This document shows, in pieces, positions 18,001-21,000 of a stretch of DNA of 45,728 nt (the first letter of the stretch is position 1; each line of letters begins with the position of its first letter). Position numbers: made by a program. Source of the DNA: Gloeobacterales cyanobacterium. GTDB taxonomy: Bacteria > Cyanobacteriota > Cyanobacteriia > Gloeobacterales > PMM-0068. Location of the stretch: assembly GCA_038245785.1 (NCBI GenBank), contig JBBRSB010000036.1:1-45728 (forward strand), given 5' to 3'.

Positions 18001-21000
18001 TGCGATAGCGGAGGCGCTGACTTATCCGTTGGGGGACAGGGAATTCCAGGTGCGCAACAAGCACGAATTTTTGAACCCTTTTATCGGGTTGATCCTTCCC
18101 GAACTCGCTCAACGGGAGGCGTTGGTTTGGGACTATCTATTGTTAGGGCTCTGGTGGAAAACATGGGTGGATCGGTTACAGTCCAGTCAAAGCCTGATCA
18201 AGGCAGTACCTTTACGCTGACCTTGCCTGCTCTAGGAGATGCATCATGACAGCCCATATCCTCCTGGTTGAAGATGAAGTCAAACTGGCTCGCTTTCTGG
18301 AGCTGGAACTGAGTAGCGAAGGCTATCGGATCAGTGTCGCTCATGATGGTATCGAGGGGCTAACACTCGCTCGCGAGTCATCTCCTGATTTAGCGGTTCT
18401 AGATTGGATGCTGCCAAGGTTGACCGGAGTAGAAGTCTGTCGTCGGCTACGAGCAACCGGAAGTAAGATACCGATTATTTTGCTAACGGCCAAAGATGAA
18501 GTAGGCGACCGAGTAGCAGGTTTGGATGCTGGAGCAGACGACTATGTGGTCAAACCGTTCAGTATTGAGGAGCTGCTCGCCAGAATCCGTGCTCATCTGC
18601 GGCGAAACCATGAACCTGATGCGGATTTGCTGCAGTTTGAAGATTTAAGTCTCCATCGCCGCACCCGCGAGGTATTTCGAGAGAAGCGAGGAATTGATTT
18701 AACGGCTAAAGAATTTGACCTTTTGGAATATCTACTCAGCCATCCTCGACAAGTAATTACGCGGGAGCAAATTTTAGAAAAGGTCTGGGGATACGACTTT
18801 ATGGGTGATTCCAATATTATCGAGGTCTATATCCGCTATCTACGTCTCAAGATGGAAGAACAGAATGAAAAGCGCTTGATTCATACGGTGCGTGGTGTCG
18901 GCTATGCTTTGCGGGAGTAGTTTTCATGACTACCAAACTCCTGGTCGGTGATTGCTTTCCTGATTTTGAATTACCCAATCACCAGAACGAAACGATACAG
19001 CTCTCCCATCTCTCTCAGCCCAGCCTTATGGACCAAAAGTTGGGGTTTTTGGATGGTTATCCCCTGATCCTCGTCTTCTATCGTGGTTTCTTCTGTCCTC
19101 GTGATCGCCAACAATTTCGTCAGCTTGTGCAATTTCAAGATGAGCTAGCGGTCAACTATGGCAAGCTCGCCGTGGTTAGTGCAGATCCACCGATTGTGCA
19201 AGCGGCTTTTCGAGCGGGTCTAGGGGCACAGTGGCAATTTTTGTCCGATGAACAGCGAGCGATCATTAAACAGATCAACATCCTGGATGAAACCGAAGGC
19301 GAGTACGCTTATCGTGCTCAACCCTACACCTTCGTATTGCAACCGGATCTGACCATCTACAAAATCTACAACGGTTGGTTCTTTGTCGGACGACCGACCA
19401 TTGAAGAACTAAGGCTGGATCTGCGGGCCATTATGGAAACCCAGTCTAATTATCGCTATGAGGCGTACAATACCCCGGCCGTGAAGCAAATCCGGATTCC
19501 CCAACAAGAGTGGGCAGATGGTTCTTCACCATTGGGTGCCAGTGGCTTACCCGTCGGTCAGGGCATTGTAGGCTGGTTCGATCTCCAGTCCGGTAACGGA
19601 ATGATTCTCAGAGATGGAACGAAGGATCAGATATTTTTCAATTTCACTGCCATTCCCGGTGAAGGTTACCGCACACTGCAAGCAGGTACATCCGTAAACT
19701 TTGAGATTGTTGAAAGCAAAGCGGGTTTAACAGCCCGCAATGTTCAAAAACAATGAAGGTCTTACCTGCTCACGGATAAATGCCAGGAATATTGAGCCGA
19801 ATTCGATAGATTCCCGTTTGGGCGGCTAGGTAGAGTGTTTTACCATCTGCATCACCCCAGGCCAGATTGTGGGGATGTTCAGAACCGACGATTGTCCCCA
19901 GATGCTTGCCTTCCGGGGATAAAATCCACAAACCACCTGGCCCCGAAACATACACATTGCCTTTCTGATCGACCTTGATCCCATCGATTGCATCCTCGCC
20001 CGGTGCCTTCGTCATGTCGTAGAACACTTTGCCCTTGGACAACGTGCCATCGGCATTAACCTCATAGCGCATCACTACTTTATAGTACTCATCCCAATCC
20101 CCCACATATAGGTACTTTTCATCCGGAGAAAACGCGAGGCCATTAGGACCGCTTAGCTCTTTGGTGAGCAATTGCAACTTGTCCTTGAACAGACGAAATA
20201 CACCACTGTAGGGTAGTTCCTTTCGTGGATCTTTGTCGGACTGGGGCAATCCAAAGGGCGGATCGGTGAAGTAGAGGGCACCGTCTGATTTGTAGACTAG
20301 ATCATTGGGGCTGTTAAGGCGCTTACCCTCGTAGCGGTTAGCCAGCACCGTCAAAACACCATTCTTTTCCAGACGGGTAATACGCCGATTGCCATGCTCG
20401 TTGATCGTCAGCCGACCCTCTTTGTCCAAGGTGAGGCCATTTGATCCGGGCTGTTTATAGGCACCAATGTCTAGGCCCGCATAGCCGCTTTTGGTGCGAA
20501 ACACCGAGACTTGCCCTTCGGGAGACCAGCGATAAATGGTGTTAGCGTTAGGGTCACTGAACAGCAGATAACCGCCATCCCGCACCCAGACTGGCCCCTC
20601 TGTAAACTGGAAGCCACTGGCAAGCTTTTCGATTCTGGCATTGGGGGGCACGATCGCATCCAACGCTGGATCTAGACGAATAATTTTGCCCCCGGCATCC
20701 GGCTGGATTTTGCCAACAGCCCCTGGTTTGTAAAAATCCAACGTAGCCGAGCGAATCCAGATGAAGTTACTAGGTGGGCTAGAGAGGGGGCCATTTGCAC
20801 CAAAGACGGCGAGCTGAAACTTTTGTCCCGGTTTAACATTGCGCCCTACTATCACTCGATTGGGTGCGTTATAGCCTTTGATTAAATTGCCTCCCGTTTG
20901 TCCTAAAACCAAGGGAAGCTGCCCATTCACCCAGACTTCGGCATAGTCGTCTACAACAATTTCAAAGACAACATCAGATCCCGTAGGGTCAAAGTTGCCT

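Follow-up and report, generated by a model that had tools for sequence, protein, structure and literature searches.

The locus described here raises the question of what a protein can do that carries a domain of the peroxiredoxin (Prx) family and a cold-shock domain (CSD) on one chain. The gene lies in a stretch of 45,728 nucleotides from a Gloeobacterales cyanobacterium (hereafter, the window). Each of the two domains is textbook material; their conserved combination, with a rebuilt one-Cys site, is without a described function, and our literature search found no published description of a redoxin-CSD fusion. We read the product, with a probability of about 40%, as a predicted stress-regulon monothiol redoxin with a docked CSD, which would act on or near single-stranded nucleic acid and be recycled by external thiols. 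It is probably a link, as yet putative, between thiol redox chemistry and the handling of RNA or single-stranded DNA (ssDNA) in times of stress. The interpretation in a preliminary description of the locus stands where it held the fusion to be real, conserved, patchily distributed, mobile and of doubtful peroxidase activity, but not in its argument from a lack of Csp-type proteins in cyanobacteria or in its account of an active-site Thr replaced by Phe.

The gene (g04219) is intact and real, as had been stated; its reading frame is complete and its domains score above the Pfam gathering thresholds. The AF2 model of the 276-residue protein has a pLDDT of 90.5 and a pTM of 0.87. The anatomy of the gene is as follows.

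18926..19756, + strand: redoxin-CSD fusion gene (ORF list; ATG start, stop codon included, 276 aa)
18944..19360, + strand: AhpC/TSA-Redoxin domain, residues 7-145, thioredoxin-fold and peroxiredoxin-shaped (Pfam, Foldseek, VIA)
19082..19105, + strand: active-site motif R53-G-F-F-C57-P-R-D60, with the Cys57 codon TGT at 19094-19096 (sequence)
19322..19324, + strand: codon of Pro133 (invariant column in three wider-family alignments; profile-to-PDB alignments)
19361..19558, + strand: connector, residues 146-211, with a GRPTxEELR motif, a helix at 159-170 and short helices at 153-155, 178-182, 184-187 and 193-196
19559..19750, + strand: CSD, residues 212-275, with a degenerate RNP1 (Pfam PF00313, alignment with CspB 1csp)

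The N-terminal domain has the Prx fold. Pfam AhpC-TSA (PF00578) covers residues 7-145 (5e-15, 56 bits against a cut-off of 26), and Redoxin (PF08534) covers residues 7-139 (5.7e-8, above its gathering score). Foldseek matched the domain to BcpB (5epf, E 1.1e-11), and VIA matched it to AhpE (Z 21.4), BcpB (Z 21.3), and ResA (Z 17.0). The PrxQ/BCP- and AhpE-type enzymes (M. tuberculosis BcpB, 5epf; AhpE, 5id2/1xxu) share with the fusion the overall fold (rmsd 1.9-2.4 over 152-153 residues), the Pfam assignment, one Cys close to where helix 2 begins, and the FLSD and GR-like motifs, whereas the 130-residue C-terminal extension of connector and CSD is found only on the fusion side of this comparison. 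The active sites also differ. The segment R53-G-F-F-C-P-R-D60 is invariant in all 29 rows of our alignment, and the motif xRGF[FY]CPRD occurs in 196 of 198 sequences. Cys57, previously named as the only invariant Cys, is so in the 29-row alignment as well, and it is the sole Cys of the protein in 81 of the 198 sequences, where an intramolecular disulfide is therefore impossible. The Thr/Ser and the Pro of the Prx signature PxxxTxxC are missing in every alignment: Gly54 (not Phe, as reported earlier) stands three residues before Cys57, and Val50 stands seven before it. In gapped alignments, Gly54 or a gap faces the Prx Thr, and Arg53 faces the Prx Pro. Either the active-site loop of the fusion is three residues shorter than in these enzymes, or its Cys occupies the position of the Thr. 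Judged from its sequence, the fusion redoxin is not a canonical Prx.

A second comparison is with the CxxC oxidoreductases ResA, TlpA, and CcmG. Their G-x-[FW]-C-P-x-x motif and P-x-T-F cis-Pro loop align with the fusion without gaps, and the structural match has an rmsd of 2.0, but the fusion is globally closer to Prx than to ResA. Pro133, which is invariant before strand 3 and makes up a cis-Pro loop at the sequence level, aligns both with the cis-Pro of ResA (P-T-T-F) and with the position of the catalytic Arg in Prx (R-x-T-F). The position of the second Cys is occupied by Asp or Glu throughout the family (C-P-R-D here), which leaves no CxxC dithiol, and the fusion has no membrane anchor or signal peptide, so that we regard it as cytosolic. 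One published account (PMC2757866) describes a monothiol 'Cxxc' class of thioredoxin-fold proteins, comprising monothiol glutaredoxins, glutathione peroxidases, and ArsC. They resemble the fusion in a single nucleophilic Cys at the N-terminal CxxC position and in needing an outside thiol, but they belong to different sequence families and have Ser, Thr, or Val at the last motif position, where the fusion has Asp or Glu. Three of 15 aligned stand-alone relatives have another residue in place of the Cys (one Ser, two Asp), which indicates that the fold can persist without thiol chemistry. A selenocysteine form was considered and rejected, as the one TGA codon that we inspected (genome G028) does not fall on the Cys codon but cuts the CSD short. 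NCBIfam matches to the retron Se72 effector and to SelL-related proteins score far below the cut-offs.

The connector belongs to the most conserved regions of the fusion protein in the 29-row alignment (invariant G155, R156, P157, Y176, Y181, R190, P192, Q193, Q194, and W196). PDB matches of the fusion end at residue 166-181 and leave the rest of it uncovered. Its conservation, together with the high pTM, suggests a fixed arrangement of the two domains rather than a loose tether. The domain that follows is a CSD: PF00313 matches residues 212-275 (4.6e-15, 55.7 bits against a cut-off of 27), the model contains a five-stranded barrel (strands 210-219, 224-229, 235-239, 256-264, and 267-275), and CspB (1csp) is matched with an E value of 9.3e-12. 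It is not one of the small Csps, as the NCBIfam Csp equivalogs all score far below their cut-offs (at best 51.7 bits against 115.4, for cspD). CspA and CspB (1mjc, 1csp) have the same barrel, and their W8, F27, F30, and F38 (as Tyr) are kept in the fusion, but they are free-standing proteins of ~70 aa, and their RNP1 reads K-G-F-G-F-I where the fusion has [SAT]-G-[NSIV]-G-[MALV]-I. The RNP1 positions of CspB Phe15 and Phe17, the two phenylalanines with which canonical CSDs contact nucleic acid, have an aromatic residue in 2 of 194 and 3 of 194 sequences, respectively, and are Asn224 and Met226 in the window. This loss is family-wide, with eukaryotic and other distant fusions included, and nucleic-acid binding by the CSD may therefore be weak or absent. 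The stacking residues are kept: the Trp217 position is Trp in 179 of 194 sequences, and F237, F240, and Y248 are invariant. The invariance earlier ascribed to F218, F237, F238, and F240 is also seen in the 29-row alignment. The position of CspB His29 is partly kept (Asn in 148 and His in 46 of 198 sequences).

The CSD had been considered of special interest on the ground that cyanobacteria lack Csp-type proteins. This ground falls away because 181 of 401 genomes of the class have a CSD above the Pfam cut-off and another CSD, attached to an S30AE/HPF domain, is encoded in the host genome itself (G000:C8:80545-80733). Among the CSD contexts of the class, the S30AE/HPF-CSD type is probably the most frequent, judging from the many listed CSD matches that lie in frames of 185-240 aa. 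Like the fusion, they are longer cyanobacterial proteins with a C-terminal CSD, but at the N-terminus they have a ribosome hibernation factor, and the RNP1 of their CSD is normal (GYGFI). The Prx5-glutaredoxin of H. influenzae (1nm3) and a peroxiredoxin-nitroreductase (4eo3), both among the structural matches, also join a Prx-fold domain to a second functional domain. Their partner domain is a reductant or another redox enzyme, whereas that of the fusion is an OB-fold domain of nucleic-acid-binding type.

A search at E<=1e-3 gave 1745 related proteins, the number reported before, and the best 120 of the 1745 all carry PF00313 and PF00578, as also reported, with lengths of 273-323 aa and identities of 74-93%. 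The patchy spread noted earlier is evident in a larger sample: 15 of 401 sampled class genomes, the host genome included, have the gene at E<=1e-40, and 4 of 16 class-genome matches are broken or partial. Again in agreement, neither of the two same-genus genomes carries it, and one full-length copy occurs in the 11 other genomes of the order. The range is wider than the cyanobacteria and Chloroflexota originally named, as it takes in Actinomycetota, Deinococcota, Thermomicrobiota, chytrid fungi, and one amoebozoan. Fusions of 65-93% identity are spread across at least five bacterial phyla; the distant ones are 42-53% identical and include two from chytrids (49% and 51%) and one from the amoebozoan (43%). 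The suggestion that the gene moves horizontally is well borne out by copies on plasmid records (loci L078, L003, and L006), by a congener that has the equivalent regulator gene with no fusion gene after it, and by an AU test on a set of 32 sequences, in which a clade uniting the window's copy with the one from the single other carrier in the order is rejected (p 0.0029). Mis-binning of the contig from a Leptolyngbya-like genome was rejected, since the flanks have counterparts in congeners with a nucleotide identity of 72-85%. A search for longer fused forms returned two proteins only, namely a 502-aa chytrid protein and a YfhO chimera that seems to be an artefact of assembly or deletion; it contained no triple fusion of flavoprotein, redoxin, and CSD.

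The gene directly upstream on the same strand codes for an Lpd/GR/MerA-like flavoprotein, which has a CxxxxC redox pair, in 16 of 78 loci, mostly at a distance of 9-14 nt. These loci are distributed over at least three subclades and include an Actinomycetota MAG. The host genome encodes a 75%-identical orthologue (448 aa) elsewhere. Nine of the 15 class genomes with the fusion gene contain the flavoprotein compared with 33 of the 386 without it, counts that are not phylogenetically independent. The partner is not obligatory: none of the five carriers in one family (f18) has it, and 33 of the 42 flavoprotein genomes are without the fusion gene. The operon-like linkage agrees with catalytic turnover of the fusion no less than with a switch. 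The C-terminal Cys tail of the flavoprotein (G-x-D-M-P-x-C-P-N-M) was considered as a dedicated shuttle to Cys57 and rejected as specific evidence, since 28 of 32 copies from non-carrier genomes have it but only 3 of 8 from carriers; it characterises the family of the flavoprotein itself, irrespective of the fusion gene.

The genes upstream of the fusion gene in the window code for a two-component system.

16948..18249, + strand: histidine kinase (Pfam HisKA, HATPase_c), overlapping the start of the regulator gene by 4 nt
18246..18920, + strand: OmpR-family response regulator, NblR/RppA-like (Pfam Response_reg, Trans_reg_C), with its stop 5 nt before the translation start of the fusion gene
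18913..18917, + strand: Shine-Dalgarno-like GGGAG, 8 nt 5' of the ATG, still within the 3' end of the regulator gene (sequence read directly)

The response regulator scores 283.5 bits with the NCBIfam NblR model (cut-off 300) and is probably co-transcribed with the fusion gene. The two-component genes had been described as absent beside foreign copies, but a wider sample shows otherwise: directly upstream in five foreign loci (L005, L008, L009, L017, and L061) there is a regulator of 86% identity, and one of 75-80% identity lies within the locus in five further ones. The regulator is kept beside the fusion gene in its own subclade. In four Ktedonobacteria loci, the fusion gene overlaps an ECF sigma factor gene by 4 nt. 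A search of sequencing runs was uninformative on expression, as no RNA run was among those listed with the gene and the sole run with a full match was a DNA run, which may come from the source sample. Genes for a methyltransferase and a DUF3641 radical-SAM protein occur nearby in 4 of the 78 loci only, and this arsenic link is too thin to build on.

These features can be combined in a model in which the fusion would be a cytosolic stress-response effector whose two domains work as one unit. The peroxiredoxin-shaped site would be rebuilt around a single nucleophilic Cys57, with no Thr, Pro, or resolving Cys and with Pro133 at the cis-Pro position. The Cys57 thiolate is predicted to attack an oxidised substrate sulfur (a disulfide, an S-thiolated protein, or a sulfenate) and to form a mixed disulfide, after which an outside thiol system would reset it. 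In about a fifth of the loci, the putative reductant would be the upstream flavoprotein, with or without a low-molecular-weight thiol as intermediary. The connector would hold the CSD against the redoxin, and the CSD, with W217, F237, F240, and Y248 kept and the RNP1 phenylalanines lost, may place the enzyme on short ssRNA or ssDNA or on a nucleic-acid-bound partner. Expression would be under a dedicated regulator, namely the NblR/RppA-like two-component system here and the ECF sigma factor in Ktedonobacteria.

It is also possible, though we hold it tentatively, that Cys57 is a sensor, whose oxidation to a sulfenate, an S-thiolated form, or an intermolecular disulfide changes the docking of the CSD and turns its predicted binding of RNA or ssDNA on or off; the protein would then be a thiol-gated RNA chaperone or antiterminator that general reductants reset. 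The fusion has a single invariant Cys and often no other, as one-Cys sensors do. Allosteric coupling would be in keeping with the rigid, conserved connector and the high pTM, the small and polar RNP1 face could be a docking face, and the fusion gene is probably co-transcribed with transcription regulators in 10 of the 78 loci (six with the response regulator and four with an ECF sigma factor). However, operons with a dedicated flavoprotein reductase are typical of enzymes more than of sensors, the redoxin domain as a whole (with the cis-Pro loop and the GR motif) is as conserved as in enzymes, and the loss of both RNP1 aromatics weakens the case for thiol-gated binding. More doubtful is a bolder form of this idea, in which the protein would be a self-contained RNA switch with a thiol gate. 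The degenerate RNP1 face would be docked on the redoxin as long as the protein is reduced, and oxidation or S-thiolation of Cys57 would release it (or the reverse), so that the thiol redox state controls an RNA chaperone or antiterminator. Such a module would have spread horizontally, as a portable stress device, among cyanobacteria of dry-land and cold habitats, Ktedonobacteria, relatives of Rubrobacter and Deinococcus, chytrid fungi, and amoebae.

We consider it unlikely that the CSD has given up nucleic acids and become a protein-binding or intramolecular module, which would make the fusion a redox-sensitive partner of the upstream regulator (response regulator or ECF sigma factor, for example in an anti-sigma-like role) or of another protein. 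Anti-sigma genes usually lie directly after the sigma factor gene, and the 4-nt overlap places the fusion gene there; elsewhere, it directly follows the response regulator gene. The loss of the RNP1 aromatics throughout the family would also agree with this. Against it, the four aromatic residues on the usual ligand face are invariant or nearly so, neither regulator is directly upstream in 66 of the 78 loci, and Pfam reveals no similarity to known anti-sigma domains.

The last alternative is a true one-Cys peroxidase tethered to nucleic acid, in which Cys57 would be peroxidatic after a three-residue deletion in the active-site loop and Arg130 catalytic, with D60 and R156 where Prx1/Prx6-type enzymes have their conserved Glu and second Arg, and which would remove peroxides beside RNA or DNA. 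Comparison with the genome's own peroxiredoxins by hhalign (probability 98%) and with the PDB by phmmer aligns C57 with the peroxidatic Cys, through a three-residue gap, and R130 with the Arg. The motif CP[RK][DE] resembles CPTE and CTKE, VGRPTIEELR resembles VGR..DE..R of tryparedoxin peroxidase (4llr), and AhpE and BcpB are the top structural matches (Z 21). The register of Cys57 differs between profile alignments, however, and the ungapped HMMER alignment to three Prx structures puts Asp60 on the peroxidatic Cys. In the model, helix 58-77 starts at residue 58, which leaves Cys57 at the N-cap and not in the first turn. Arg130 was previously taken as invariant but is merely nearly so (177 of 191 scored sequences); it lies three residues before Pro133, matches the Prx Arg only via an insertion, and is variable in the wider family, where Pro133 is invariant. 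With the signature Thr and Pro missing and with 11 other AhpC/TSA matches in the host genome, at least seven of them with canonical motifs, peroxidase activity is as doubtful as first predicted, and we rate this the least likely of the readings.

For annotation, these results show that an AhpC/TSA match does not make a peroxidase and that cyanobacteria are not poor in cold-shock domains. Through gene linkage, the fusion and the uncharacterised Cys-tailed flavoprotein reductase are predicted to form a concrete biochemical pair. If the thiol and the CSD are functionally coupled, the fusion would represent a new way to link redox state to the handling of RNA or ssDNA, and such a link would be relevant to oxidative, cold, and drying stress in the organisms of soil crusts and lichens.

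The fusion gene joins a redoxin domain to a cold-shock domain (CSD) and directly follows a kinase-regulator pair. The features of the window at this site are as follows.

Features at the fusion gene (positions, strand, feature)
16948-18249, plus: histidine kinase gene, overlapping the response regulator gene
18246-18920, plus: OmpR-family response regulator gene, its stop 5 nt before the fusion-gene start
8 nt upstream of the fusion-gene ATG, plus: the sequence GGGAG
18926-19756, plus: fusion gene, an ORF of 276 aa with an ATG start

In Pfam, AhpC-TSA (residues 7-145, 5e-15), Redoxin (5.7e-8) and CSD (212-275, 4.6e-15) all exceeded their gathering scores, and no NCBIfam model reached its cut-off. 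The AlphaFold2 model, for which 47 aligned rows were used, has high confidence (mean pLDDT 90.5, pTM 0.87), with a thioredoxin-type fold at 1-150, a five-stranded barrel at 210-275 and, between them, a connector consisting of a helix (159-170) and four short helices within 153-196. Because the connector is fixed and conserved and the pTM is high, we argue that redoxin and CSD act as one unit. We tentatively read the protein, at a probability of roughly 40%, as a putative stress-regulon monothiol redoxin with a docked CSD, working on single-stranded nucleic acid or a nucleic-acid-bound partner and recycled by an outside thiol. The fixed connector and high pTM suit equally well the putative switch proposed in the preliminary description, in which the thiol state gates RNA or DNA binding; we consider that mechanism only somewhat less probable.

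The CSD aligns with CspB at E 9e-12. Among 194 scorable sequences (198 for His29), the Trp8 position is Trp in 179 and the Lys7 position Arg or Lys in 165; F237, F240 (Phe27 and Phe30) and Y248 (Phe38) are invariant, and the His29 position is Asn in 148/198 and His in 46/198. The two RNP1 phenylalanine positions are aromatic in just 2/194 and 3/194 sequences (Asn224 and Met226 in the window), a loss also seen in the distant and eukaryotic fusions. Because the Trp8, Phe27 and Phe30 positions are kept and the RNP1 phenylalanines are gone, nucleic-acid binding by the predicted CSD is plausible but cannot be assumed. The domain is not rare in cyanobacteria, with CSD matches above the Pfam cut-off in 181 of 401 class genomes. 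Many of the matches listed lie in frames of 185-240 aa, like the second CSD protein of the window's genome (192 aa; G000:C8:80545-80733, L002 1462-2040, minus strand), which combines an S30AE/HPF ribosome-hibernation domain with a CSD of normal RNP1 (GYGFI).

For the gene neighbourhood, ORFs were called and clustered in 80 loci plus the window, and the fusion gene was recovered in 78 (L028, L030 and L042 were lost at ORF picking and left out of the counts). Directly upstream on the same strand, a putative disulfide reductase of Lpd/GR/MerA type, hereafter the flavoprotein, occurs in 16/78 loci, mostly 9-14 nt away; it has Pyr_redox_2 and dimerisation domains and a GGSC-x4-C redox pair. A GH63-like hydrolase takes this place in two loci, the contig ends there in four, and in four Ktedonobacteria loci an upstream ECF sigma factor gene overlaps the fusion gene by 4 nt. 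A response regulator or kinase lies directly upstream in eight, of which six, the window counted, share one orthologue (86% identity) at distances between -4 and 26 nt, four of these being 0-5 nt; the same regulator family (75-80% identity) lies elsewhere in five further loci. A putative protein-binding CSD that acts on the upstream regulator appears improbable.

Other recurrent neighbours are DM13 (12 loci), GT2 glycosyltransferases (11), SDRs (11), DUF4079 (9) and, more rarely, an FNR-like reductase with a 2Fe-2S domain (5) and an aquaporin (5). The window has three of these.

Recurrent neighbours in the window (positions, strand, feature)
13322-14173, plus: aquaporin gene
23397-24713, minus: FNR-like reductase (2Fe-2S) gene
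24853-25581, minus: DUF4079 membrane protein gene

At least one of flavoprotein, DM13, GT2, DUF4079, FNR-like reductase and EamA is found in 31/78 loci, window counted, and the FNR-like/DUF4079/aquaporin/DM13/GT2 set may represent a shuffled redox and membrane gene neighbourhood. Recurring downstream of the fusion gene, in Nostocales-type loci, are a methyltransferase and radical-SAM DUF3641 pair (L024, L044, L057 and L064) and a Mo-nitrogenase C-terminal-domain protein (six loci). In the window, three minus-strand genes converge on it (19770-21455, 21409-21897 and 21901-22674), the nearest stop 13 nt from its own; their products are an SMP-30/gluconolactonase-like protein that is extended by a long stretch at its N-terminus, an HbpS/GlcG-like protein and a secreted protein with weak similarity to spondin_N. 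At 23084-23308 on the plus strand lies a small gene for a ParD-type antitoxin (Pfam 5.5e-10).

The flavoprotein is roughly equidistant from the solved Lpd, MerA and GR structures and falls below every NCBIfam cut-off. The window's genome holds a 75%-identical copy on another contig (L083 1501-2847; G000:C14:86756-88099). It was found in 42/401 class genomes and in 9/15 fusion-gene carriers, comprising all six in family f17 and none of five in family f18, counts that are not independent; the link between the two genes is therefore real but not obligatory. A C-terminal tail with a single Cys, G-x-D-M-P-x-C-P-N-M, is present in 31 of the 40 copies examined and absent from several others including that of the window's genome; across these 40 copies, it does not track fusion-gene presence.

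A protein database search returned 1745 relatives at E<=1e-3, and the 120 listed all share this fusion (273-323 aa, 74-93% identical). They carry generic names such as 'peroxiredoxin/cold shock CspA family protein', 'cold shock domain-containing protein' and 'redoxin domain-containing protein'. A full-text literature search of non-subscription journals gave nothing relevant on the redoxin-CSD combination, and a term search of the accessible text of a 2012 survey of cyanobacterial peroxiredoxins did not find the word 'cold'. Pattern scanning, with one genome taken for each species, matched 249 stretches, 189 of them encoding a relative, from which the 80 loci were retained. Their sources span many orders of cyanobacteria as well as Ktedonobacteria and other Chloroflexota (some with two copies), Thermomicrobiales, and single MAGs of Deinococcales and Sericytochromatia; two further MAGs are Actinomycetota (one Rubrobacter), and one short contig is from Desulfobacterota. 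Three records (L078, L003 and L006) are labelled as plasmids.

Residues 1-206 as query against 1.8 billion representatives gave 978 relatives, 30 at E<=1e-30. A CSD was present in 6 of the 39 full-length-looking proteins scanned, distant fusions (42-53% identity) included; by source name, the latter belong to two chytrid fungi (one on a 375-kb contig), an amoebozoan transcriptome and a Desulfurellaceae MAG cluster of 64 members. The eukaryotic members are P0272 (Dinochytrium, 502 aa), P0126 (Chytridium, 329 aa) and P0142 (Soliformovum, 282 aa). Both chytrid proteins have a long low-complexity insertion within the CSD, and P0272 is extended at its N-terminus by 170 residues, including a Cys/His-rich stretch without a Pfam match at E<=0.001. 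In a single metagenome protein, P0271 (785 aa), a YfhO-type membrane protein follows the redoxin and connector from precisely the expected CSD start; a deletion or a chimeric assembly is the probable cause. The next tier consists of redoxins that stand alone, about 170-270 aa in length and marked by R-G-x-[FWY]-C-P-[KR]-[DE]; the Cys is missing in 3/15 aligned. The neighbours of the family in the ESM Atlas are Actinomycetota and Acidobacteriota.

The fusion gene was found in 15/401 sampled class genomes at E<=1e-40 (own genome counted), concentrated in four families, and 4/16 matches are broken or partial. A full copy occurs in 0/2 congeners and 1/11 other same-order genomes, so the patchy spread and the absence from sister genomes reported in the preliminary description hold. 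One same-order genome, G004, has only a CSD-sized relic (L091 about 1510-1740; G004:C1:525014-525241), a 76-codon frame 55% identical to residues 200-275 (connector end and CSD) and preceded by stop codons, which is either what remains of the fusion gene or a derivative of it that stands alone.

Horizontal movement, also proposed there, is supported by several observations. In the congener G002, the kinase-regulator pair is present with 76% nucleotide identity, and the homology ends at the regulator stop codon, after which a different short-gene module follows; therefore, the contig is native to this genus, and the two genomes differ at that stop in having or lacking the fusion gene. The short genes in the congener (L092, G002:C122), where the fusion gene is absent, read like a HicA/HicB-type pair. 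In an 85-row tree, labelled Cyanobacteriota rows need 2 changes and Chloroflexota rows 4, so the phyla are largely coherent, but the cyanobacterial part ignores taxonomy. The window copy falls within a starred clade (10 rows) of records from Leptolyngbya, Stenomitos, Tildeniella and Lyngbya and an Oscillatoriales MAG. A constraint that groups it with the copy of the one other carrier in the order lowers the log-likelihood by 36 units (p-AU 0.0029; 32 rows, the constrained group named after the tree was seen). Transposase genes occur in 5/78 loci. GC content near the fusion gene showed nothing unusual.

Structure searches matched residues 1 to about 175 only, with AhpE (Z 21.4, rmsd 1.9), BcpB (Z 21.3) and other peroxiredoxins as the best matches and ResA at Z 17.0. 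The motif xRGF[FY]CPRD occurs in 196 of the 198 sequences of the family (120 from the database and 78 translated from the loci, sets that may overlap), and its Cys is the sole one in 81. Gly54 and Val50 stand at -3 and -7 from Cys57, where peroxiredoxins have Thr and Pro. The register of Cys57 differs between alignments. An N-domain profile in HMMER, aligned gap-free to three peroxiredoxin structures and ResA, places Arg53 on the peroxiredoxin Pro, Cys57 on the Thr (the first Cys of the ResA CxxC), Pro133 on the Arg (the ResA cis-Pro) and Asp60 on the peroxidatic Cys. In contrast, phmmer with the single sequence, and HH-suite run against the genome's own peroxiredoxins, open a 3-residue gap; Cys57 then falls on the peroxidatic Cys and Arg130 on the Arg, after which Q-P-Y is inserted. 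Pro133 is invariant throughout the wider family, whereas Arg130 is not. Because modelled helix 2 begins at residue 58, Cys57 is predicted at its N-cap, the place of the first CxxC Cys. Among the 12 AhpC/TSA matches of the window's genome, two peroxiredoxin-like proteins have CxxC motifs, FCPFC and CRHC (L146, G000:C9:33822-34202; L147, G000:C24:71520-71894); 2-Cys, PrxQ, 1-Cys and Prx5-type enzymes with canonical motifs are also among them.

In the portion consulted of a thioredoxin-fold atlas (PMC2757866), peroxiredoxins are TxxC sites with Arg at the cis-Pro position, and monothiol glutaredoxins, glutathione peroxidases and ArsC are defined by 'Cxxc' sites with one Cys. The active site of the redox domain differs from that of a peroxiredoxin, and a putative true peroxidase of this type, tethered by its CSD, appears improbable. 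We conclude that the domain is a one-Cys site on a peroxiredoxin-shaped scaffold whose putative activity needs an outside thiol. In the monothiol redoxin that we favor, the docked CSD would place the enzyme on single-stranded nucleic acid or a nucleic-acid-bound partner, and an outside thiol system would recycle it.
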